Shown in pieces: positions 1 to 38,366 of a DNA stretch of 64,000 nt (positions are counted from its first letter, which is position 1; every line of letters begins with the position of its first letter). Position numbers and translations under genes: made by a program. Origin of the DNA: Enterobacteria phage vB_EcoM_IME540; the sequence record MT150133.1; one strand, written 5' to 3'. The notes below the pieces were generated by a model, which was given only the letters and a program-made list of their open reading frames with translations, was not told the origin of the DNA and searched no databases.

Positions 1-609
1 TACGGCCTGGCCAGTTTCCTTAGAAACATAAACTTCGCCAACTTTAGACTCAACCTTAGTATAAAGCTCGGCATCAATTTCAGGCATACCCTTAATATCT
101 TCAATATTAGTGCCACGACGTACTAAAAGAACATAGGTATGTTTTCCGGTGAATTGGTACATGGCATCAACAACTTTAAACTTACCACCAGTACGAGCCA
201 TAGCTAAACGAGCTAATACACGCTGAACAGTAGGACCCTTACCTTTCATTTTCTTGGTAGGGAACCGGAAAAGAACTGCATCCATTTTAAGTTTGTTTAC
301 TTGTTCGTATACAGTATCAAAAATGGTATTCAGCGTACCAAGTGGGTCAGAACCTAACCCACCTTTCAACTCGGCTGGGCTACCCTTAGCAGACAAACTC
401 ATCAAAATAACATGAACATATTTGTCTCCGGGCTTAACCATTTTAATAGCGTCTCCTTGAGACGCATAAGATACCATACGAGCAACCAGGTTATCATTAC
501 CTGGCGCTTTAATAGAGAAAATCTGTGGGATACCGGAACCTGGTTTAAGATTTATTACTGGATAGTTTTTATCGGAATCACTATCAAAAACCTCGTTTAA
601 ATTTTCCAT
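1..609 (-). CDS. Alt-family ADP-ribosyltransferase paralog, N-terminal 203 codons; gene continues beyond window start
   Basis: ATG at 609 on minus strand, in frame to position 1; my translation (MENLNEVFDSD...KMKGKGP...YQFTGKHTY...) is clearly homologous to the N-terminus of the adjacent 694-aa Alt-like ORF; nucleotide similarity of 1-200 to 2100-2300. Confidence 0.7.
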   Translation of the reverse strand, partial: MENLNEVFDSDSDKNYPVINLKPGSGIPQIFSIKAPGNDNLVARMVSYASQGDAIKMVKPGDKYVHVILMSLSAKGSPAELKGGLGSDPLGTLNTIFDTVYEQVNKLKMDAVLFRFPTKKMKGKGPTVQRVLARLAMARTGGKFKVVDAMYQFTGKHTYVLLVRRGTNIEDIKGMPEIDAELYTKVESKVGEVYVSKETGQAV

Positions 610-27654: not shown

Positions 27655-27662
27655 TATAAATA
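27655..27662 (+). promoter_or_regulatory. late promoter for gene 34
   Basis: Exact TATAAATA about 33 nt upstream of the gene 34 ATG. Confidence 0.7.
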
Positions 27663-27694: not shown

Positions 27695-30600
27695 ATGGCC
27701 GATATTTTAAAACCTGCCTTCCGTGCTACATCCGGACTCGATGCTGCAGGCGAGAAAGTTATCAATGTTGCCAAAGCCGATTACAATGTATTAGACGACG
27801 GCGTCAACGTTGAATTCTTTATAGATGAGAACACCATCCAGGCGTACGACGAGACGCGCGGATATAAGAAAGGGTTTGCCGTAATCCATGACCAACGTAT
27901 CTGGGTTGCTCAACGTGATATCAATGCTCCAGCAGGAACCTTTGTACCTGGTTATTGGACTGCTACCCGTACTGACCCTAAATGGATTACCGTAGCATCT
28001 CCTACACGCCAACTGGCTTCTGGTGAATATATTGCAGTGGATTCTGCTGCTAGCTTTACTACATTTACCCTGCCTCCGAACCCTACTGATGGTGATACCA
28101 TCGTAATCAAGGATATTGGTGGCCGTGTAGGTTATAATGAAATTAAGCTCCAGTCTAGTTCTGCTCCAGGTGGTGGTAATCAGAAAATTGTCCGTTTCGG
28201 TAACCAGTTCACTGAGACCTTAATTACGAAGCCTTTTTCCTATAATATGATTATCTTTGCCAACCGTTTATGGCATTTCTGGGAAGCAGCTAATGAAGAA
28301 CGTGGTATTCGTGTAGAACCGAACACCGCCCAGTTCCAATCACAAGCGGGTGATAACGTTTTACGTCGTTATACTTCGGGTGCAGTAATTAAGTTTACTC
28401 TTCCTAAGTATGCGAACCAAGGTGATATTATTAAAACCGTTGATATCGATGGTTTAGGAAGTAAATTCCACTTAATCGTTGAAACATTTGATGCGTCATC
28501 TTCATTAGGTAAGCCTGGCCAGCATAGCATGGAATTCCGTACTTCAGGTGATGGATTCTTTGTTTATAACTCTACCGAAAAATTATGGTATGTTTGGGAC
28601 GGCGACCGACAAACTCGTTTACGTGTAATTCGTGACGATGTTGAACTCTTGGCTAACGAAAGTGTTATTGTTTTTGGTCCTAATAACACGACACCCCAGA
28701 CAATTAATATCACATTACCTACCGGTGTGGCCCAGGGTGATGTCGTTAAGATTGCTCTGAACTATCTCCGTAAAGCTCAGACAGTAAATATTAAGGCTGC
28801 CGTAGGAGATAAGATTGCTTCATCCGTCCAGTTGCTTCAATTCCCTAAACGTTCAGAATATCCACCAGAAACCGAATGGGTATTGAATGACGTACTGACC
28901 TTTAATGGCAATATAAGTTATACTCCGGTTATTGAACTGAGTTATATCGAAGACACCACTACAGGTGGCAAATATTGGGTTGTTGCCCAGAACGTTCCTA
29001 CTATAGAACGTGTGGATTCTAAAGATGATTTAACTCGTGCTCGTTTAGGTGTTATTGCCCTTGCGTCCCAGACTCAAGCAAACGTTGACCATGAAAATAA
29101 TCCTGAAAAAGAACTGGCAATTACTCCGCAGACTTTAGCTAATCGTGTGGCGACTGAATCTCGTCGTGGTATTGCTCGTATTGCTACTACTGCTCAGGTG
29201 AACCAGGACACAACCTTCGCATTCCAGGACGATTTGATTATTTCTCCTAAGAAATTAAACGAACGTACTGCAACCGAAACTCGTCGTGGTGTTGCTGAAA
29301 TTGCTACGCAAGTTGAAACTGATGCTGGTATAGATGATACTACAATCATCACTCCTAAGAAGCTACAAGCGCGCCAGGGTTCGGAAAGTCTTTCAGGTAT
29401 TGTAACATATACCTCTACTGTAGGAACCACTCCTGCGACTGCTAGGGACACCGTAGGTACTAACGTTTATAATAAGAACGTAGGCAATTTGGTTATTTCT
29501 CCTAAAGCTCTTGACCAGTATAAAGCTACCCAAGTTCAACAGGGTACGGTATATCTTTCTAACCAATCTGAAGTTAACGCAGGTCAATCGGCAAGTGGAT
29601 TTGCCAACAGTGCTGTTTCTCCTGAAACATTACATGCTCGTGTGGCTCTTGATACTCGTACAGGGTTAATTGAAATTGCTACGCAAACAGAGACTGATAC
29701 TGGAACAGATTATACTCGTGCGGTAACGCCTAAGACGTTAAATGATAGGAAAGCTACGGAAGGATTGACTGGTATTGCTAGAATTGCAACACAGGTAGAA
29801 TTTGATGCAGGTGTATTAGATAATGTTATTTCAACTCCGTTGAAAATTAAAACAAGATTTAATGATACCGCTAGAACTTCTGTCTCAGCAGCCAGTGGTT
29901 TGGTTGAATCAGGAACCTTATGGAACCATTATACACTAGATATTAGAGAAGCAAATGAGACTCAACGTGGTACTGCTCGCCTGGCGACCCAGACCGAAGT
30001 CAACGTTGGTACTGATGACAAAACCATCATCACTCCTTTGAAATTACACTCTAAAAAATCTACTGAAAGTTCTGAAGGTATTATTCGTGTTGCAACCAAT
30101 ACCGAAACAACCGCAGGAACTTCTAAAGTTTTGGCTGTAAGCCCTTCTGGTTTAAAATATGTAGTACAGACCGAAACTACTTGGGAAGCTACTGCACTTC
30201 GTCGTGGATTTGTTAAATTAACCGAAGGTGCTTTAACCCATTCAGGAAATAAAGTTACTGGTTCTGGTGTTAAATTCAACTCAGGTACAGGCCTTTATGA
30301 GAACGATGATACTGTTCTGAACGCAGCGAACTATCCTAAAACGGGTTATGCGGTTTCATCTTACGAGATGAATAAAACTTTACAGAACTTTTTACCTATA
30401 AATGCTACGGCTGTGAACTCCGAGAAATTGGATGGCCTAGATTCACTCCAGTTCATTCGTAGAGACGTCGATCAAACGGTTAATGGTTCTTTAACCCTGA
30501 CCAAACAATTGAACCTGGCAGCTCCTCTAGTGTCTTCTAGTACTGCTAATATTACCGGCAATACTATTTTAGGTTCTCTGGAAGTAACAGGAAATTCTAC

Positions 30601-31747
30601 TTTTAAAAATGATGTATCTGTTAGCTCAGGTAAATCTATTAAATTTGTAGGACCCCAGTCTGGCGCAGGTTCTTGGGATTCTCAGGCAACTAATTTTGCA
30701 CCTATTTTCTCTGAGATAAATTCTACTGTTGATGCTAGTTATCACCCTATTGTTAAGCAACGATTAGGGCAGGGTACTTTCTCTTTAGGTACTTTAAATG
30801 ACGGTTCCGGCGATTTTAAAATCCATCATATTAGCAGTGCTTCTGGTGCTTTAAAATCTTCCTACTGGACCTTTAATACGACCGGTGATTTTGCTGTTAA
30901 TAGTGGTTCTATTAGTATTTCTAAGAATGCTAATATCACAGGTATAACCACTTCTAACGGTGTTTCTACAACCACACTAAATGCTTCTGCTCTGTCTTCG
31001 TTGCAAAACGTAACTACTTCAGGTACTATCGTTTCCACCGGACAGGTATCGGCAAATAATGGTTTGGTTGCTCAAAAATACGTCCGTTCTGTTGGTGTTA
31101 AACCTACATTAGCATCCCAGGCCCCTACTGCAGAAACAGTTGGCTTCTGGTCTGTTGATATCAATGATTCGGCCACATTTAACCTGTTCCCTGGTTATTG
31201 GACGATGAAAACGAAACGCCAGGTTAATATCGATACGGTCCAAACTAAACCTGCCGGTGTTTCTGATGAGATATGGAATGCTTCTGGTTGGTTGACAGAA
31301 ACAGGTGCATTTAGTTCTCCGGCTATTCGTTATCGTAACGAAGACGGTAGTTTTGGTGACGAAGTTCTCGGTACGTCAGGTCAGAAATTACGTGGTACTT
31401 GGTTTGATTATTCTGTTCGTGATAAGGAAGTTAAATATCCTGGTACGTTAACCCAGTTTGGTAATACATTGGATTCATGTTATCAGGATTGGGTGTGCTA
31501 TCCTACAGGATTGAATGGTGGTACTATTCGTTATACACGTACCTGGCAGAAAAATAAAAACGCATGGACTACGTTCTCTATGGTCTATACGGCAGATAAC
31601 CCTCCTTCTGCGGAAGAGGTTGGTGCATTGCCTGCTGATAACGCTACAATGGGTAACATTACAATCCTTGATTGGTTACGTATTGGTAACGTTCGTATTA
31701 TTCCTGACCCGGTCACTAAATCCGTTAAGTTTGAGTGGATTGAATAA
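27695..31747 (+). CDS. 34: long tail fibre proximal subunit
   Basis: 1350 aa; colinear with T4 gp34 including conserved N- and C-termini. Confidence 0.95.
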   Translation: MADILKPAFRATSGLDAAGEKVINVAKADYNVLDDGVNVEFFIDENTIQAYDETRGYKKGFAVIHDQRIWVAQRDINAPAGTFVPGYWTATRTDPKWITVASPTRQLASGEYIAVDSAASFTTFTLPPNPTDGDTIVIKDIGGRVGYNEIKLQSSSAPGGGNQKIVRFGNQFTETLITKPFSYNMIIFANRLWHFWEAANEERGIRVEPNTAQFQSQAGDNVLRRYTSGAVIKFTLPKYANQGDIIKTVDIDGLGSKFHLIVETFDASSSLGKPGQHSMEFRTSGDGFFVYNSTEKLWYVWDGDRQTRLRVIRDDVELLANESVIVFGPNNTTPQTINITLPTGVAQGDVVKIALNYLRKAQTVNIKAAVGDKIASSVQLLQFPKRSEYPPETEWVLNDVLTFNGNISYTPVIELSYIEDTTTGGKYWVVAQNVPTIERVDSKDDLTRARLGVIALASQTQANVDHENNPEKELAITPQTLANRVATESRRGIARIATTAQVNQDTTFAFQDDLIISPKKLNERTATETRRGVAEIATQVETDAGIDDTTIITPKKLQARQGSESLSGIVTYTSTVGTTPATARDTVGTNVYNKNVGNLVISPKALDQYKATQVQQGTVYLSNQSEVNAGQSASGFANSAVSPETLHARVALDTRTGLIEIATQTETDTGTDYTRAVTPKTLNDRKATEGLTGIARIATQVEFDAGVLDNVISTPLKIKTRFNDTARTSVSAASGLVESGTLWNHYTLDIREANETQRGTARLATQTEVNVGTDDKTIITPLKLHSKKSTESSEGIIRVATNTETTAGTSKVLAVSPSGLKYVVQTETTWEATALRRGFVKLTEGALTHSGNKVTGSGVKFNSGTGLYENDDTVLNAANYPKTGYAVSSYEMNKTLQNFLPINATAVNSEKLDGLDSLQFIRRDVDQTVNGSLTLTKQLNLAAPLVSSSTANITGNTILGSLEVTGNSTFKNDVSVSSGKSIKFVGPQSGAGSWDSQATNFAPIFSEINSTVDASYHPIVKQRLGQGTFSLGTLNDGSGDFKIHHISSASGALKSSYWTFNTTGDFAVNSGSISISKNANITGITTSNGVSTTTLNASALSSLQNVTTSGTIVSTGQVSANNGLVAQKYVRSVGVKPTLASQAPTAETVGFWSVDINDSATFNLFPGYWTMKTKRQVNIDTVQTKPAGVSDEIWNASGWLTETGAFSSPAIRYRNEDGSFGDEVLGTSGQKLRGTWFDYSVRDKEVKYPGTLTQFGNTLDSCYQDWVCYPTGLNGGTIRYTRTWQKNKNAWTTFSMVYTADNPPSAEEVGALPADNATMGNITILDWLRIGNVRIIPDPVTKSVKFEWIE

Positions 31748-31755
31748 GAGGTATT

Positions 31756-32877
31756 ATGGAAAGATTTATGGCAGAATTTGGACAAGGATATGTCCAGGTT
31801 CCTACATTATCTGAAAACAATGCTGTAAGGTATAAACTTAGTATAGCGGGTAGTTGTACTAAGTCTACCACAAAAGCATATGTTAAATTTCAAGATGGGA
31901 ACTTCGGTTCCCAGAATTTTCAAAATGGATTAAACCTTATAGAAATTGATGTTAGTGCTGAACCTAAAATAGTGGCTAACAAAACTTATAGTTTTACAAA
32001 AGATTTTGATGTTATTTCTGAAGCTTTTATAACGTATATAAATTCTATACCGGCCAATAGAATAGTTTGTTTAGTATCTTCTGGTAGATTAAATGCTTCA
32101 CAAAAACTTATCGATTGGTTCCGTGCAGCAGGAAGTACCGCATTCCCGACTAAATGGTTAATAGACCGGTTTGAGCCATCTTATTCTGCATTTTATGTTT
32201 CAGGAAGGAATGCTATAGTAATGGAACATGTGCTTTATAATGATGGGGTGCTTGTCGAAGATGTTTCTACTCCATTAGAAGTGGTATTTGATGATATCAG
32301 CGACGTCGGTGGTACAGGATATCCTGTCAGAATTGTTGAAGACGAAAGCACTTATCTAAGCAATGAGGGAGATGAAATTAAGCGATTTCCTACCGAATCT
32401 CCTACCACCCCATTAACAGATTATAACATGAAGCCAGGTGAATTCTTTTACCTTAAGTTTCAATTAATGTGTGACCAAGCTTTAAAAGACGTCGGGACCT
32501 CTCAGATGTCTGTTAGATTTTTTAATGCCTCAGGTGCTTTAACCGGGACAGTTAATATGGACGTTCCTTCCAACGTTCCTGCTGGTGCATGGATGACATT
32601 TGAACGGGTAGTAATGGTTCCTGAAGGTACTACAGACTTTACCCTTTATGCCAGAAAAACAGCTTCGGCCGGACAAGGTGGAGTTCGAAATGTTATGTTC
32701 GGTGAGATATCTGAATCAGAACCTCAGCCAAAACCCGCTGAATTTGGTGTTAACGGTATTCGTATGAACTTTGGTACGGAAACTAAAAATATGGGTACTA
32801 CCATAGCCCAGCTATATGATAAAACAGGCACTAAACCCGGTCAGGTTTGGGTCGCTGAATTTAGAGAAAAATATTAA
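31756..32877 (+). CDS. 35: long tail fibre hinge protein
   Basis: 373 aa, position and size of T4 gp35. Confidence 0.8.
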   Translation: MERFMAEFGQGYVQVPTLSENNAVRYKLSIAGSCTKSTTKAYVKFQDGNFGSQNFQNGLNLIEIDVSAEPKIVANKTYSFTKDFDVISEAFITYINSIPANRIVCLVSSGRLNASQKLIDWFRAAGSTAFPTKWLIDRFEPSYSAFYVSGRNAIVMEHVLYNDGVLVEDVSTPLEVVFDDISDVGGTGYPVRIVEDESTYLSNEGDEIKRFPTESPTTPLTDYNMKPGEFFYLKFQLMCDQALKDVGTSQMSVRFFNASGALTGTVNMDVPSNVPAGAWMTFERVVMVPEGTTDFTLYARKTASAGQGGVRNVMFGEISESEPQPKPAEFGVNGIRMNFGTETKNMGTTIAQLYDKTGTKPGQVWVAEFREKY

Positions 32878-32905
32878 GGAACCTTCGGGTTCCTTTTTCG
32901 TTTTT
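32878..32905 (+). terminator. rho-independent terminator after gene 35
   Basis: GGAACC-UUCG-GGUUCC followed by UUUUUCGUUUUU. Confidence 0.75.
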
Positions 32906-32910
32906 ACGGC

Positions 32911-32924
32911 CATAAATATATAAA
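32911..32924 (+). promoter_or_regulatory. possible late promoter variant for genes 36-37-38
   Basis: CATAAATATATAAA between gene 35 terminator and gene 36; not an exact TATAAATA. Confidence 0.3.
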
Positions 32925-32951
32925 AGGCTATAACTCCCAAAGGAAACTCAA

Positions 32952-33599
32952 ATGGCAGATTTAAAATTAGGTTCTACAGCAGGAGGTTCGGTATTATGGC
33001 ACCAAGGTAATTTTCCCTTAACGCCTGTATCAAACGACCTTCTTTACAAAACATATAAAGTTTACACTGAATATAATAAACCACAAGCCGCTGATAACGA
33101 CTTTGTTTCAAAAGCAAACGGCGGCAATTATAAGAATAACGTGTATTTTGAAAAAGGTTTGACCTTTAATGATACCAATGGATATGGTATTAAATTAGGA
33201 GCAAGAACTGGCGGAGCCCCGTTCACAGCTTCTTTCCGTATTAAAGGTGCTTTTGGATATGAAACGGAAGATGGTACACCGTTCGTTATATTTGACCCAA
33301 GTACAGTAGTGGGTGCTAAACGCCTCACAGTAATGGGTGATTCATTATTCCGCCAAGTATATGACGAATCAGGTCGTGTATTCAGCCCAGGCAACACCCC
33401 TACTAAAGCCCAAGTAGGATTATCGTTAGTAGATAACGCAAAACAGGTCCAAATAAATAATACTAACATGCAAACAATGACCGGAGTACTTGCTGCTCCT
33501 AACTTTATTTCGCTGAATCCGGCCTCTGACGCAGGACACGTTCCTCGTTTTGACCAGATTGTTATTAAAGATTCTATTCAAGATTTTGGTTATTATTAA
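32952..33599 (+). CDS. 36: long tail fibre distal connector
   Basis: 215 aa; conserved N-terminus and C-terminus (HVPRFDQIVIKDS.QDFGYY) as in T4 gp36. Confidence 0.9.
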   Translation: MADLKLGSTAGGSVLWHQGNFPLTPVSNDLLYKTYKVYTEYNKPQAADNDFVSKANGGNYKNNVYFEKGLTFNDTNGYGIKLGARTGGAPFTASFRIKGAFGYETEDGTPFVIFDPSTVVGAKRLTVMGDSLFRQVYDESGRVFSPGNTPTKAQVGLSLVDNAKQVQINNTNMQTMTGVLAAPNFISLNPASDAGHVPRFDQIVIKDSIQDFGYY

Positions 33600-33607
33600 G
33601 AGGCATT

Positions 33608-36600
33608 ATGGCTACTTTAAAGCAAATCCAATTTAAAAGAAGTAAAGTAGCCGGTGTACGTCCGACACCGGCCCAGTTGGCTGAAGGCGAACTGGCTATT
33701 AACTTAAAGGACCGATTACTTTTTACTAAAGACGATACCGGAGCGATTATCGACCTTGGCTTTGCTAAAGGTGGTAATATTGACGGCAATGTTATTCATA
33801 CCGGTAACTACAATCAAACCGGTGATTATACCCTAAATGGTACCTTTACCCAAACAGGTGATTTTAATTTAACCGGTATTGCTCGCGTAACTCGTGATAT
33901 TATTGCTGCAGGTCAGATAATGACTGAAGGCGGAGAACTTATTTCTAAGAGTGCTTCAACTTCTCATTTGAGATTCTTTGACGGTGCATCACGTGAACGT
34001 GGTATTATCTTTTCTCCTAATAATGCAGGGTTGACAACTCAGGTAGTTAATATCCGTGTTCAAGATTATGCCGCTGGTAGCGAAAGCACTTATGCATTTT
34101 CAGGCAATGGTCAATTTACTTCACCTGAAGTATCGGCATGGAAATCTATTTCATCCCCACAAATTCTGACCGATAAAGTTATTACAAATGGTAAGAAAGC
34201 TGGCGATTATGATATATCTTCATTAGCAAATAATAATTCTGCCACGGATAAAAACTATTTGCGCGTTGTACGTACCGACCCGGCGTCTGCAATGCTCCAT
34301 GAAATTTGTGAAAATAACGGTATCAGTTGGTATTCTGGTTCAACCCCTACTGATTATATGTTGTCTTTTGCTTATTCTGGCGGTTTTCAAGCTGGACATT
34401 CGATTGCAGTAGGTATGGAATCAGGGCCTATGACATATTCAGCCTTAGGTAAAGGTTCTATTGCTTTGGGTGATAATGATACCGGATTAAAATGGCATCA
34501 AGATGGATATTATTTCAGCGTTAATAACGGCACAAGAACTTTACTGTACGGCCCTGCAGAAACAACTAGCCTAAGAAAATTTGTGGCCGGTTATTCTGTA
34601 AACGGTACCGATTTAACCACTCCTCCGTCGGAAAACTATGCATTAGCCACTGTTGTTACTTACCATGATAATAACGCGTATGGTGATGGCCAAACTCTTT
34701 TAGGTTATTATCAAGGTGGTAATTATCACCACTATTTCCGTGGTAAGGGTACTACAAACGTTAACACTGCAGGTGGTCTGTTAGTTACTCCTGGTAATAT
34801 TGATGTTGTTGGTGGTTCGGTTAATATTGACGGCCGCAACAATGCTTCTACTCTGTTTTTCAGAGGAAATACTACAGGAAATAGTTCAGTTGATAACATG
34901 TCTATCAACGTTTGGGGTAACACCTTTAGTACAGTAGATGGCTTTCGTAAAAACGTGATGGAAATATCTGATGATATTAGTTGGATGCATTATATCCAGC
35001 GCAATAAAGATAATACCATTGAGGCTGTATTAAATGGGCAACAAACTATTAACGAAAATCTTGTTGTTAAAAAAGATATTTTGGTTGATAGAGCGGTCCA
35101 CACCGCTGGTGAAATTACTACAAATGCTGTTAACGGGCTCCGCATCTGGAACAACGATTACGGGGTCATTTTTAGACGTTCAGAAGGAAGTCTTCACATT
35201 ATTCCTACTGCATTTGGTGAAGGTAAAAATGGTGATATCGGACCACTTCGTCCATTTAGTTTGGCTTTAGATACCGGTAAGGTTGTTATTCCTGACTTGG
35301 ATTTGAGTTATGCTTCTTTTGCAGCAAACGGCTATATTAAATTCGGTGGACATGGTGCAGGTGCAGGCGGTTACGATATTCAATATGCACAAGCAGCTCC
35401 TGTTTTCCAAGAAATTGATGATGATGCTATAAACAAATATTATCCTATTGTTAAACAGAAGTTTTTAAACAGCAAAGCTGTTTGGTCTTTAGGTACTGAA
35501 ATTAATTCAGGTACATTTGTTTTACACCATATCAAAGAAGATGGTTCACAAGGCCATACATCAAGATTTAACGCTGATGGTACAGTTAACTTTCCGGATA
35601 ACGTTCTGGTCGATGGTGGTATTAACATGAAAGGCGTGATGACTTTTGACGCCGGACATTTAGGATCACAAGATTATTTTAAATTTAACCATTTGGGTGA
35701 TAGTAATAATGCTCGTGATAACATCATCCAGTTAGAAGATAGTCAAGGCGCTCATTTTTCCACTGAACGTACTTTAGCGACAGGTGCAATTAAAACTCGT
35801 TTCTTTGGCGAAACATCCACTGATGGTACATTATACCTAAATCAGATGAATAATAGCTCTGAACGATTCTCTATTAATAATTGGGGAAATTCAGAAGTTG
35901 GTCGCGCGGCAGTGATGGAAGTCAAAGATTCCAAAGGTTATCACTTCTATACTGAACGCAGGACAGATAACAGTTTGAATTTTGATGTTGGTGGCAATTT
36001 TACTGCGCATGGACCTTCCGGAATAACCATCAAAAACTCTGCTGGCGCTCGCCACATCTGGTTTAAAGATGATAGCGAATCGGAAAAGGCTGTTATCTGG
36101 GCTACAGATGAGGGTATTTTACATATACGAAATAATTATGGGGGTTCATTTAGTCATCACTTCCGGGGTGCAATGATTCTAGCGGAAGAGCGTGTTCCAT
36201 ATAATAGTGAATACGCTCTTATCCGTGGTAATATTTCCGGTGGTGCATGGGTAGACTGGCGAGATCGTCCGGCTGGATTGTTGGTAGACTGTCAGGACTC
36301 ACGAAATCAAGCATATAACATTTGGAAAGCTACTCATTGGGGCGAACAGCACATTGCGGCGATGGGTGTTCATGCCGGCGGTGGTAATCCTCATGTTGTA
36401 TTGCATGTGGGTGGGAGTGATTACGCATTTGGATTTAACGGTGATTTTACTGCTGGTGCTGCTGTATATTGTAACGACGTTTATATTCGTTCTGACCGTC
36501 GTCTGAAAATTAATGTTGAAGACTACGAAGAGAATGCGGTGGATAAGGTAAATAAACTCAAAGTTAAAACCTATGATAAAGTTAAATCTCTTTCTGACCG

Positions 36601-36844
36601 CGAAGTTATCGGCCATGAGATTGGTATTATCGCACAGGATTTGCAAGAAGTATTACCGGAAGCTGTTAGCACTTCTAGTGTCGGATCTCAGGATAACCCA
36701 GAAGAAATTTTAACAATTTCTAACTCCGCTGTGAATGCTCTTTTAATTAGGGCCATTCAGGAAATGAGTGAAGAAATTAAAGAATTGAAAACGCCTTTCT
36801 TCACTAAAATTGCTCGCAAAATTGGTAAATACTTTAAATTCTAA
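33608..36844 (+). CDS. 37: long tail fibre distal subunit with C-terminal intramolecular-chaperone-like domain
   Basis: 1078 aa; conserved gp37 N-terminus; C-terminal ~120 aa beginning SDRRLKINVEDY resembles self-cleaving chaperone domains of phage fibres. Confidence 0.9.
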   Translation: MATLKQIQFKRSKVAGVRPTPAQLAEGELAINLKDRLLFTKDDTGAIIDLGFAKGGNIDGNVIHTGNYNQTGDYTLNGTFTQTGDFNLTGIARVTRDIIAAGQIMTEGGELISKSASTSHLRFFDGASRERGIIFSPNNAGLTTQVVNIRVQDYAAGSESTYAFSGNGQFTSPEVSAWKSISSPQILTDKVITNGKKAGDYDISSLANNNSATDKNYLRVVRTDPASAMLHEICENNGISWYSGSTPTDYMLSFAYSGGFQAGHSIAVGMESGPMTYSALGKGSIALGDNDTGLKWHQDGYYFSVNNGTRTLLYGPAETTSLRKFVAGYSVNGTDLTTPPSENYALATVVTYHDNNAYGDGQTLLGYYQGGNYHHYFRGKGTTNVNTAGGLLVTPGNIDVVGGSVNIDGRNNASTLFFRGNTTGNSSVDNMSINVWGNTFSTVDGFRKNVMEISDDISWMHYIQRNKDNTIEAVLNGQQTINENLVVKKDILVDRAVHTAGEITTNAVNGLRIWNNDYGVIFRRSEGSLHIIPTAFGEGKNGDIGPLRPFSLALDTGKVVIPDLDLSYASFAANGYIKFGGHGAGAGGYDIQYAQAAPVFQEIDDDAINKYYPIVKQKFLNSKAVWSLGTEINSGTFVLHHIKEDGSQGHTSRFNADGTVNFPDNVLVDGGINMKGVMTFDAGHLGSQDYFKFNHLGDSNNARDNIIQLEDSQGAHFSTERTLATGAIKTRFFGETSTDGTLYLNQMNNSSERFSINNWGNSEVGRAAVMEVKDSKGYHFYTERRTDNSLNFDVGGNFTAHGPSGITIKNSAGARHIWFKDDSESEKAVIWATDEGILHIRNNYGGSFSHHFRGAMILAEERVPYNSEYALIRGNISGGAWVDWRDRPAGLLVDCQDSRNQAYNIWKATHWGEQHIAAMGVHAGGGNPHVVLHVGGSDYAFGFNGDFTAGAAVYCNDVYIRSDRRLKINVEDYEENAVDKVNKLKVKTYDKVKSLSDREVIGHEIGIIAQDLQEVLPEAVSTSSVGSQDNPEEILTISNSAVNALLIRAIQEMSEEIKELKTPFFTKIARKIGKYFKF

Positions 36845-36848
36845 TAAC

Positions 36849-36865
36849 AAGGGGCAATGCCCCTT
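36849..36865 (+). promoter_or_regulatory. hairpin between genes 37 and 38
   Basis: AAGGGG-CAAUG-CCCCUU followed by GGAG and gene 38 ATG. Confidence 0.4.
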
Positions 36866-36877
36866 TGGAGATAAATT

Positions 36878-37681
36878 ATGGCAGTAGTTGGTGTTCCTGG
36901 TTGGATTGGAAGTTCAGCCGTAAATGAAACGGGCCAGCGCTGGATGAGTCAAGCGGCTGGTCAATTAAGATTAGGTGTTCCTTGCTGGATGAGTCAATTT
37001 GCAGGTCGCTCAAGAGAAATTATTCATACACTTGGAGCGGACCACAACTTTAACGGACAATGGTTTAGAGACCGTTGTTTTGAAGCCGGTGCTGCACCTA
37101 TTGTGTTTAATATTGTAGGCGATATAGTATCTTACGACCGTAACGTTCCGCTGTTCTTTATGAATGGTGATACTCCTAATGAATATGTTACTTTGAATAT
37201 TCATGGTGGGGTTCATATGTGGGGACGTGGTGGTCATGGCGGTTGGACCCACTCAGGTGGAGACGGTAACGGTCAATGGGGTGGCGATTGTATAGTCAAC
37301 CATATAGGTCATAGACTACGTATTTGGAACTATGGGGTTATCTGTGGCGGTGGCGGTGGTGGTGGTGGCATTGCGTATCGTCCTCACTCAGGTGCTAACT
37401 GGCAAGATATCGGTGGTGGTGGTGGACGTCCATTTGGTCCTGGTGGCGGTGGTGGATACTCCGGTGGTGGTGCTTCTTATGAAAGCCCTGGTGGTGGATA
37501 CGATTATGGTAATGCCCACTCAGGTCGTGGCGGTGATGCTGGCGGCGCTGGCGGCAACGCATGGAATGATGGTGGTAAAGTTCTTAAAGTTGGGGCTGGG
37601 GGCGGTTCTGGAGCTGCTGTTGCCATTTCTGCTCCTGCATGGGGCGCGACAGGTACGATTTACGGTCCTTGGCTTAGTTAA
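36878..37681 (+). CDS. 38: tail-fibre adhesin gp38 (T2 type, glycine-rich motifs)
   Basis: 267 aa; conserved N-terminus [71 protein letters not shown] and several poly-Gly motifs. Confidence 0.85.
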
Positions 37682-37686
37682 GAAAT

Positions 37687-37694
37687 TATAAATA
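37687..37694 (+). promoter_or_regulatory. late promoter for holin t
   Basis: Exact TATAAATA 19 nt upstream of ATG at 37713. Confidence 0.7.
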
Positions 37695-37712
37695 TCTTTA
37701 AAGGAGAAAAGT

Positions 37713-38366
37713 ATGGAACCAAAAGTAGGAATATCATTATCAGACCTACTTTTTGGACTTCTTGATAGAATTTTTAAAGATACTTCTTCCGGGAAAGTAG
37801 TTTTTTCCCGGGTCCTAGTCGTGATATTATTGTTCTTTATGGCATTGGTTTGGTATAAAGGCGAGTATATTCTAAACTTTTATAAAGAGACAACTTATGC
37901 CTCTTATACTGAAATGATTAGACAAGACCAGGACAATAGATTTAAAATTGCGGCTATCGAGCAGCTCCGAATAGTGCATTCTTCTTCAGGCGCAGACTTC
38001 ACAGCAATATATTCTTTTAGACCAACCAACATGAATTATTTTGTGGATATGGTGGCTTACGAGGGTAAATTACCGGAAACGGTAGACGCAAAAAATACGG
38101 GAGGGTTTCCAATTGACAAAACGTCAGTAGAATATATGGTGGGAGTTAACGGGAACTATTTTGAATCAAGTACCGAAACTGTATTCCTTCCTACAAAGAA
38201 GAAAACACAATTCACGTATATGTTTTCGTGCCCGTTTTTTAATTTGGATAACGTCTACGCCGGCTCGATATCGTTGTACTGGTATGATATCAAACCGGAT
38301 TTAGGATTTCCTAGACTTTCGTCTATGTGCGGTCAGGCTGGGAGGACATTAGGTCGAACACGTTAG
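37713..38366 (+). CDS. t: holin
   Basis: 217 aa; resembles T4 holin T; single N-terminal transmembrane region. Confidence 0.9.
   Translation: MEPKVGISLSDLLFGLLDRIFKDTSSGKVVFSRVLVVILLFFMALVWYKGEYILNFYKETTYASYTEMIRQDQDNRFKIAAIEQLRIVHSSSGADFTAIYSFRPTNMNYFVDMVAYEGKLPETVDAKNTGGFPIDKTSVEYMVGVNGNYFESSTETVFLPTKKKTQFTYMFSCPFFNLDNVYAGSISLYWYDIKPDLGFPRLSSMCGQAGRTLGRTR

Follow-up and report, generated by a model that had tools for sequence, protein, structure and literature searches.

Genes 37 and 38 of the Dhakavirus-like T-even phage vB_EcoM_IME540, the source of the 64,000-nt stretch of DNA analysed here (the window), very probably form a receptor-recognition module of the T2/T6 type; we put the probability of this reading at about 90%. 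In the proposed mechanism, gp37 would be synthesised as a 117-kDa precursor whose C-terminal 117 residues, a Peptidase_S74 chaperone, would drive trimerisation of the fibre and then excise themselves between Arg961 and Ser962 by means of a Ser962/Lys967 dyad, laying bare a flat trimeric tip that ends in DVYIR. A single gp38 monomer would dock on this tip, where three equivalent hydrophobic pockets would receive Trp9, Trp22 and Trp37 from its three N-terminal helices. In gp38, the glycine-rich motifs would pack as a polyglycine-II sandwich, with the variable segments between them looping out at the distal end to bind an outer-membrane protein, most likely OmpA for this allele. Such a locus would decide the first surface protein seized by the phage. 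If the reading is right, the receptor prediction that follows from it can guide the selection or engineering of phages for therapy and the composition of cocktails aimed at different receptors. The architecture itself is textbook and already known: the literature from 2011 to 2026 describes self-cleaving gp37 chaperones, polyglycine gp38 adhesins and the shuffling of these modules in detail, and there is no conceptual addition here.

The sequence-only reading had described a gp37/gp38 locus at this place, an observation that is correct, yet ordinary, and its coordinates for both reading frames are exact (table 1). The open reading frames give the gene order g34-g35-g36-g37-g38-t, where t, which starts at 37713, is identified by its match to Pfam Phage_holin_T. 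Both products match records of vB_EcoM_IME540 exactly: gp37 is QJA42511.1, the sole member of its own 90% protein cluster, and gp38 is QJA42512.1, labelled ‘hypothetical protein’. Both sequences are, that is, already in GenBank. Judged by their scores, the Pfam matches of the two proteins are family-level and far above chance, which excludes a compositional accident; NCBIfam has no model for either. Neither tRNAs nor Rfam families were found in the window.

Table 1. Features of the g37-g38 locus; positions are those of the window.
Feature	Residues	Position	Strand	Basis or remark
Gene 37, long tail fibre distal subunit	1-1078	33608..36844	+	ORF; 1078 aa, 117.4 kDa precursor
gp34-like shaft module within gp37	446-550	34943..35257	+	Pfam PF21446 Gp34_trimer
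Distal tip of mature gp37	851-961	36158..36490	+	identity comparisons with relatives
DVYIR strand ending the gp37 tip, predicted gp38 dock		36476-36490	+	docking role from PMC7917993
Intramolecular chaperone/Peptidase_S74 of gp37, 13.3 kDa	962-1078	36491..36841	+	PF13884
GC-rich hairpin AAGGGGC-AAT-GCCCCTT, after g37 stop and before g38 Shine-Dalgarno		36849..36865	+	predicted -11 kcal/mol
g38 Shine-Dalgarno GGAG		36867-36870	+	sequence
Gene 38, monomeric fibre-tip adhesin (predicted)	1-267	36878..37681	+	ORF; 267 aa, 27.1 kDa
gp38 N-terminal attachment domain (Trp9/Trp22/Trp37)	1-42	36878..37003	+	Pfam Gp38_N
gp38 specificity domain	113-267	37214..37678	+	glycine runs, 37% Gly; boundaries approximate
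gp38 glycine-rich motifs	116-122, 157-164, 179-193, 218-226, 239-248		+	boundaries approximate
gp38 variable segments	123-156, 165-178, 194-217, 227-238		+	boundaries approximate

The gp38 specificity domain and its predicted receptor

Glycine makes up 27% of gp38 as a whole, and the protein has six runs of at least three glycines, among them a run of eight at residues 157-164 (151-158 in the S16 counterpart), which bears out the multiple poly-Gly stretches that had been noticed in the sequence. Five glycine-rich blocks are conserved over 12 adhesins, with variation concentrated between the blocks. Full-length tblastn alignments of gp38 end at residue 178 and a search with its C-terminal 88 aa gave no tblastn matches, presumably because the low-complexity filter masks glycine-rich sequence; blastn of the DNA and our own alignments were used instead. 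At the DNA level, positions 37302-37751 are 98-100% identical to WG01, QL01 and FB. At the protein level, residues 121-267 are 99% identical to these same three phages (one substitution), 97% to MX01, 93% to AV111, 85% to LHE83 and 80% to AV119, versus 43-45% to T2 and T6. The gp38 proteins of WG01, QL01, FB, MX01 and IME540 fall into one shared 90% protein cluster.

It is the comparison with typed adhesins, as the sequence-only reading had suggested, that points to a receptor. AV119 carries an OmpA ‘type 1’ adhesin (Lutz et al. 2025) with contact residues R165-V-H-S-G-A to A170 (PMC12032242). The corresponding residues of IME540 are R168-P-H-S-G-A, while AV111 has RPHSGA and LHE83 has RVHSGA. 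HVS1 and this HVS2 contact motif, R-(P/V)-H-S-G-A, are common to IME540 and the type 1 group of AV111, LHE83 and AV119/FL08, and HVS2 as a whole is identical in IME540 and AV111; the attachment-domain types of that group, on the other hand, differ from that of IME540. By identity and contact motif, gp38 of IME540 would belong to the type 1 OmpA-binding group. OmpA is its most likely receptor because AV111 and LHE83, the nearest typed relatives of its specificity domain, are both experimentally OmpA-dependent: AV111 needs OmpA and also lipopolysaccharide (LPS) (PMC10844046), and for LHE83 the receptor was shown by a resistant mutant, a knockout and complementation (PMC10987938). For WG01, QL01 and MX01, whose specificity domains are the closest of all, no receptor was found in the literature searched.

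The alternative that survives best, though we consider it unlikely, is that the module works as described with a receptor other than OmpA (Tsx, OmpF, OmpC, FadL, LamB, OmpW or LPS), or with OmpA and a second receptor. Similarity-based receptor prediction has its limits, since a single HVS3 substitution in RB68 switches the receptor from OmpF to OmpW (bioRxiv 2026.04.02.716166), and about 7% of the positions in the specificity domain differ between IME540 and AV111. Moreover, knocking out ompA in E. coli BL21 leaves LHE83 with about 50% of its adsorption (PMC10987938), which makes a second receptor likely for that phage, AV111 requires LPS in addition, and Bp7, a related Dhakavirus, reportedly uses LamB and OmpC (PMC10987938). 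Against this, the specificity domains of Bp7, T2 and T6 are only 40-45% identical to that of IME540, all three experimentally typed adhesins of the subtype point to OmpA, the HVS2 of IME540 is that of AV111, and closely related gp38 adhesins share a receptor in published phylogenies. The claim that the locus sets host range stands for the choice of the primary receptor and is too broad beyond it, as the short tail fibre, the LPS core and bacterial immunity also help to determine which hosts such phages can infect (PMC8594841; bioRxiv 2026.04.02.716166).

The gp37 fibre and its C-terminal chaperone

Nearly the whole of gp37 (residues 1-1072) matches PHROG 1699, ‘long tail fiber protein distal subunit’, with 1248 bits. 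Within the shaft, the match to Gp34_trimer scores 32.2 bits (cut-off 27), and the same residues align with the T4 gp34 structures 4uxe, 5nxf and 9x3r (E about 6e-14). The extreme C-terminus, the last 117 of the 1078 residues of this trimeric-fibre protein, supports a reading as a Peptidase_S74 intramolecular chaperone. Here PF13884 (‘Chaperone of endosialidase’) matches residues 962-1020 to profile positions 1-57 of 58 (54.7 bits, cut-off 22; E 1.2e-14), and the domain begins at the serine. The piece that starts at residue 962, SDRRLKINVEDY, is 117 aa long, close to the C-terminal domain of about 120 aa with a boundary near residue 960 that had been proposed from the sequence; the proposed resemblance to intramolecular chaperones is upheld by the profile match, by an alignment with gp37 of S16 (PDB 6F45, chain 6f45_A) and by the residues at the junction. 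Weaker matches were obtained to the MYRF autocleavage domain (7dc3) and to a tail fibre (8jov).

The junction motif, DVYIR^SDRRLK, carries Ser962 and Lys967, five residues apart. This is a spacing that we take to be that of the catalytic dyad of endosialidase NF (presumably Ser911/Lys916). All 11 relatives that were aligned retain the S-D-x-R-x-K pattern, as does S16. In the K1F endosialidase endoNF (PF13884/MEROPS S74), as in IME540 gp37, the domain is the very last one of a trimeric fibre protein; in IME540, however, the passenger is a fibre shaft, and its exposed end would dock a separate adhesin instead of being an enzyme or a receptor-binding tip. In the literature, the cleavage site is DLNVS^SDRRIKK for S16 and DVYIR^SDGRLKI for T2-like gp37 (PMC7917993). 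Release of the 117-aa fragment is expected in IME540 because its junction aligns with the S16 site, and we infer autoproteolytic cleavage before Ser962 from the homologues in S16, T2 and T6.

A domain that has degenerated into a non-cleaving remnant and stays in the mature fibre as part of the tip is very improbable. In its favour, residues 951-1050 share only about 30-45% identity with the corresponding domains of T2 and S16. Against it, both dyad residues and the DVYIR strand just before them are conserved; residues 951-1078 are 60-93% identical to T6 by 50-residue blocks (93-100% to Bas46), and proteolytic cleavage has been described for T6 gp37 (PMC3157838); in S16, gp38 docks on a gp37 tip surface that only cleavage lays bare (PMC7917993). 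We rejected the remnant on the conserved dyad, the DVYIR strand and the likeness to T6.

The gp38 attachment domain and adhesin class

The evidence supports gp38 as an adhesin of the T2/T6/S16 type rather than a T4-type chaperone. Its sole Pfam matches are to PF21721 Gp38_N (residues 1-42, 72.4 bits) and PF05268 GP38 (residues 47-266, 211.9 bits), each against a threshold of 25, and no tail-fibre-assembly family was found in the Pfam search. It also matches PHROG 2056, ‘tail fiber protein; host specificity’, with 355.6 bits. Residues 5-266 align with the solved S16 adhesin 6f45_D (E 1.7e-47) and residues 38-265 with the PP01 receptor-binding domain, PDB 9v85 (E 8.7e-60), and it is solely from sequence alignment to these two structures that a polyglycine-II sandwich fold is predicted; an AlphaFold2 model built on a shallow alignment (the window sequence and 14 others from its 90% cluster) had a mean pLDDT of 26 and a pTM of 0.16, too low to be of use. 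In S16, T2 and T6, gp38 is known to sit on virions as one monomer per tip and to determine the receptor, and antibody blocking supports this role for LHE83; by analogy, gp38 of IME540 would do the same (3:1 stoichiometry).

The conserved N-terminus that had been noted in gp38 is the Gp38_N domain. Its three tryptophans (table 1) are invariant in a 15-sequence alignment and match those of S16 gp38, and a role of N-terminal gp38 tryptophans in plugging the gp37 tip has been described (PMC6851490). Residues 1-60 are 100% identical to MX01, LQ5, P479 and Bas46, 93% to T6, 62% to WG01 and 60% to T2. The earlier label ‘T2-type’ accordingly holds for the adhesin class and needs refining for the attachment domain, which is of the T6 type.

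The least probable of the alternatives is that gp38 is a T4-type assembly chaperone, which would help gp37 to fold, be absent from virions and leave receptor binding to gp37. Homologous genes in the UPEC07, E33, Bp7 and T6 records are indeed labelled ‘assembly catalyst’ or ‘assembly chaperone’ (some ‘distal long tail fiber assembly catalyst’), labels inherited from T4 gene naming, and, according to a review (PMC13517834), a wider host range results when the Dhakaviruses WG01 and QL01 swap segments of their receptor-binding-protein genes; since the gp38 specificity domains of these two are nearly identical despite that effect, there is room for a contribution of gp37. We rejected a T4-type role on the adhesin-only Pfam matches and the end-to-end alignment with the S16 adhesin; in addition, gp37 terminates in a predicted self-cleaving chaperone domain, unlike the T4-type receptor-binding tip, and antiserum against the LHE83 gp38 homologue blocks adsorption (PMC10987938).

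Mosaic origin and the intergenic hairpin

By identity comparisons, the g37-g38 locus is a recombinational patchwork: several Dhakavirus alleles make up the gp37 shaft, T6/Mosigvirus-type sequence forms the gp37 tip, the chaperone domain and the attachment domain of gp38, and the gp38 specificity domain is of WG01/QL01 type (99%). The gp37 tip (residues 851-961) is 96-100% identical to Mosigvirus ChristianSchoenbein (Bas46) and only 58-76% identical to LQ5, P479 and MX01. Likewise, DNA positions 36100-36560 are 98.5% identical to Bas46 and 96-97% to the Tequatrovirus phages RB32, RB33 and EV240, and over the tip segment as a whole identity is 98-99% with Mosigvirus phages and 96-97% with those of Tequatrovirus. 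The locus is a clear case of inter-genus module swapping, in which the docking module and the receptor cassette have different nearest relatives.

The relatives differ in which part they share with IME540. The Tsx-binding phage T6, Bas46, RB32 and EV240 have the same gp37 tip, chaperone and gp38 attachment type, with gp38 residues 1-60 being 93-100% identical in the T6 group; the specificity domains of T6 and Bas46, however, are only 45-53% identical to that of IME540, and the gp38 loops of EV240 are visibly of another type, though EV240 is reported to be OmpA-specific (bioRxiv 2026.04.02.716166). Since these phages share the attachment type and differ in the specificity domain, one docking module carries differing receptor-binding cassettes. 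WG01, QL01 and FB show the converse: they share the specificity domain, yet their attachment domain is of another type (62% identity over residues 1-60) and their gp37 tip and chaperone (DVYVR^SDIRVK) are about 30% identical to IME540. MX01 agrees in the attachment type and nearly so in the specificity domain, whereas its gp37 residues 851-950 are 58-70% identical. In the three types compared, gp37 tip type and gp38 N-terminal type are always paired, which fits the lock-and-key association noted previously (PMC3157838).

Salmonella phage S16 (PDB 6F45; Dunne et al. 2018) shares the two-gene arrangement, the gp37 S74 chaperone with the cleavage motif xxxxS/R^SDRRxK, and the three tryptophans and glycine-rich motif order of gp38. 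It differs in that the gp37 sequence upstream of the last five residues is unrelated, in that the released fragment is reported as 113 aa, as opposed to the 117 aa predicted for IME540, and in the variable loops, S16 using OmpC according to a title cited in PMC7917993 and IME540 being predicted to use OmpA.

A further idea, which we regard as improbable, is that this three-way chimera is unlike any parent in function as well: the conserved g37-g38 intergenic hairpin might adjust the amount of gp38 made to suit a 3:1 gp37:gp38 ratio, and the unique gp37 mosaic might provide a second contact, independent of gp38, with an influence on host range. RNAalifold covariation on the hairpins is not meaningful, as MAFFT places the stems out of register, and single-variant folding was used instead. 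Folded singly, all seven sequence variants from 11 relatives form a hairpin of 6-8 bp at the same location.

Fibre-tip genes and their products

The classical T-even long-tail-fibre block, delineated from the open reading frames of the window, spans 27695-38366 on the + strand, and the g37/g38 coordinates of the sequence-only reading proved exact. Flanking DNA shares 93-98% identity with Dhakavirus genomes (IME281, QL01, WG01, FB, Bp7 and LHE83 among them) and with the unclassified PSD9. The gp37/gp38 system is textbook knowledge and the sequence is already deposited: gp37 exactly matches QJA42511.1 (vB_EcoM_IME540, 'long tail fiber distal subunit') and gp38 exactly matches QJA42512.1 (vB_EcoM_IME540), annotated only as 'hypothetical protein'. 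The useful additions are a prediction that the receptor is OmpA and a breakpoint map. Labels on gp38 homologues in other records vary ('assembly catalyst', 'tail protein and peptidase', 'adhesin'), making public annotation of the family inconsistent.

Genes, mosaic segments and intergenic sites of the long-tail-fibre block
Feature	Position	Strand	Description
g34	27695-31747	+	1350 aa
g35	31756-32877	+	
g36	32952-33599	+	
g37	33608-36844	+	1078 aa
g38	36878-37681	+	267 aa, 27.1 kDa
t holin	37713-38366	+	Pfam Phage_holin_T
Segment	33852-34450		99-100% LQ5-like
Segment	34902-35201		97-100% LHE83-like; second half also 99% P479-like
Segment	35650-36100		91-100% to LQ5, P479, MX01, Bas46
Segment (fibre tip)	36100-36560		98-99% to Mosigvirus ChristianSchoenbein (Bas46) and phiC120; 96-97% to Tequatrovirus RB32, RB33, EV240
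Segment	37302-37751		98-100% to WG01, QL01, FB
Late-promoter box TATAAATA	27655-27662		40 nt before g34
Late-promoter box TATAAATA	37687-37694		26 nt before t holin
Variant box CATAAATA	32910-32917		before g36
Hairpin + T-run	32876-32895		follows g35 stop
Hairpin	36849-36865		between g37 stop and g38 Shine-Dalgarno

Both the observation and the interpretation of the sequence-only reading, a self-cleaving, chaperone-like gp37 C-terminus (~120 aa) followed by a T2-type gp38 adhesin, are right, with two minor refinements needed. SDRRLKINVEDY starts at gp37 residue 962, from which 117 residues (13.3 kDa) remain to the C-terminus, and the Pfam model PF13884 (Peptidase_S74, 'Chaperone of endosialidase') aligns from its position 1 to residues 962-1020 with 54.7 bits, against a cut-off of 22 bits. 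Ser962 and Lys967 lie five residues apart, the spacing of the endosialidase NF catalytic dyad. The pattern S-D-x-R-x-K is present in all 11 aligned relatives, even where the remaining domain is only ~30% identical. The region also aligns with the gp37 chain of 6F45, the crystal structure of the Salmonella phage S16 fibre tip, and, more weakly, with a further tail fibre, which has 'SDERLK', and with the autocleavage domain of MYRF. S16 gp37 is cleaved at DLNVS^SDRRIKK, and the predicted site in T2-like fibres is DVYIR^SDGRLKI (PMC7917993); the corresponding junction in the window reads DVYIR^SDRRLKI. From the S74 match, the Ser/Lys pattern and this cleavage-site motif, we infer that gp37 is cleaved in vB_EcoM_IME540, with a predicted mature product of residues 1-961 (104.2 kDa). 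In these S16 and T2-like homologues, cleavage exposes the strand for gp38 docking (PMC7917993).

The conserved N-terminus and poly-Gly stretches previously read in gp38 are borne out. Its only Pfam families are the two adhesin models Gp38_N (residues 1-42) and GP38 (residues 47-266), and it also matches PHROG 2056. Alignment to the S16 adhesin (6f45_D, E 1.7e-47) covers residues 5-266, and that to the receptor-binding domain of PP01 (9v85, E 8.7e-60) covers residues 38-265. Trp9, Trp22 and Trp37 fall in line with those three S16 gp38 tryptophans that plug into three equivalent pockets on the S16 gp37 trimer (PMC6851490). Glycine accounts for 37% of the C-terminal domain, where runs of three or more Gly occur six times, the one at 157-164 being G8. 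Alignment of 12 sequences shows conserved glycine blocks with the variation between them, the same layout of glycine-rich motifs and hypervariable segments as described by Trojet et al. (PMC3157838) and Dunne and Leiman (PMC6851490). Since the AlphaFold2 model, built from a shallow alignment, has a pLDDT of 26, the fold is assigned by sequence alignment only. The label 'T2-type' holds for the adhesin family; the attachment module is T6-type, not T2-type.

Predicted receptor

Specificity domains were compared through identity over gp38 residues 121-267. WG01, QL01 and FB are closest (99%, one substitution), followed by MX01 (97%); reported receptors for these four were not found in the literature examined. 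Among the compared adhesins with a reported receptor, the closest is that of AV111 (93%; OmpA and LPS; PMC10844046), followed by LHE83 (85%; OmpA; PMC10987938) and AV119 (80%; OmpA 'type 1'; PMC12032242), while T2 (FadL), T6 (Tsx) and Bp7 (LamB/OmpC) share 40-45% (PMC8594841, PMC10987938). For LHE83, OmpA was established with a resistant mutant and by knockout and complementation, and adsorption is blocked by antiserum to its gp38 (PMC10987938). In hypervariable segment HVS2, the residues R165-V-H-S-G-A, with which AV119 is predicted to contact OmpA (PMC12032242), correspond to R168-P-H-S-G-A here, and AV111 has the identical P variant. Given this specificity-domain identity, the HVS2 match and published phylogenies in which closely related gp38 adhesins share a receptor, we predict that the receptor is OmpA, with a probability of roughly 70-75%. 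Two caveats apply: one substitution can switch receptor, as in RB68 (bioRxiv 2026.04.02.716166), and half of LHE83 adsorption persists without OmpA (PMC10987938). Moreover, the earlier statement that the locus sets host range holds for the primary receptor but is too broad for host range as a whole, to which short tail fibres, LPS core and host immunity also contribute (PMC8594841; bioRxiv 2026.04.02.716166).

Bp7 gp38 (AEN93874.1; 1159-1950, - strand, of Bp7 sequence L009) is Bas46-type up to about residue 226, after which it has a glycine-poor tail unlike any relative. The switch resembles a frameshift, either of the phage itself or only of its deposited record, and it matters for comparisons because Bp7 is a reference cited for LamB/OmpC binding.

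Mosaic structure of the locus

Block-wise DNA and protein comparison reveals a mosaic, which is the modular shuffling previously described for this locus. Common Dhakavirus sequence (97-99% in most blocks) makes up g36 and the opening 250 bases of g37. Further downstream, the fibre tip drops to 72-85% identity with LQ5, P479 and MX01, and the gp37 chaperone domain and first 60 residues of gp38 are of T6/Bas46/MX01 type. For the stretch 36990-37310 (gp38 residues about 38-144), mapped as 37000-37300 in the block-wise comparison, DNA matches in the phage collection searched do not exceed 87%, and the donor is absent from that collection; the encoded protein is ~90% identical to MX01, and both flanks match known phages at 97-100%.

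The gp37 tip/chaperone type co-varies with the gp38 attachment type in three distinct pairs, in agreement with the lock-and-key association noted before (PMC3157838). The same docking module also carries Tsx-type (T6), EV240-type and Bas46-type specificity cassettes. At 90% identity, gp37 is alone in its cluster and gp38 falls in a cluster of 37 sequences. In the gp37 shaft, 34943-35257 (residues 446-550) matches Pfam 'Gp34_trimer' and the solved T4 gp34 C-terminal region (E ~6e-14), so the proximal and distal half-fibres have a module in common.

Intergenic sites

Exact T4-type late-promoter boxes precede g34 and t holin, and the variant box lies just past the hairpin and T-run behind g35. 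The exact box occurs 6 times across the window, against a chance mean of 7.4, so that only the positions are suggestive. The hairpin between g37 and g38 has a GC-rich stem of 7 bp (AAGGGGC-AAT-GCCCCTT, -11 kcal/mol). The 11 relatives have seven different sequences at this site, each folding into a hairpin of 6-8 bp (-11 to -14.7 kcal/mol), with a C(UUCG)G tetraloop in T2, LHE83 and Bp7. With only three U after the stem, it is not a canonical terminator; hypothetically, it may stabilize mRNA or tune gp38 expression.
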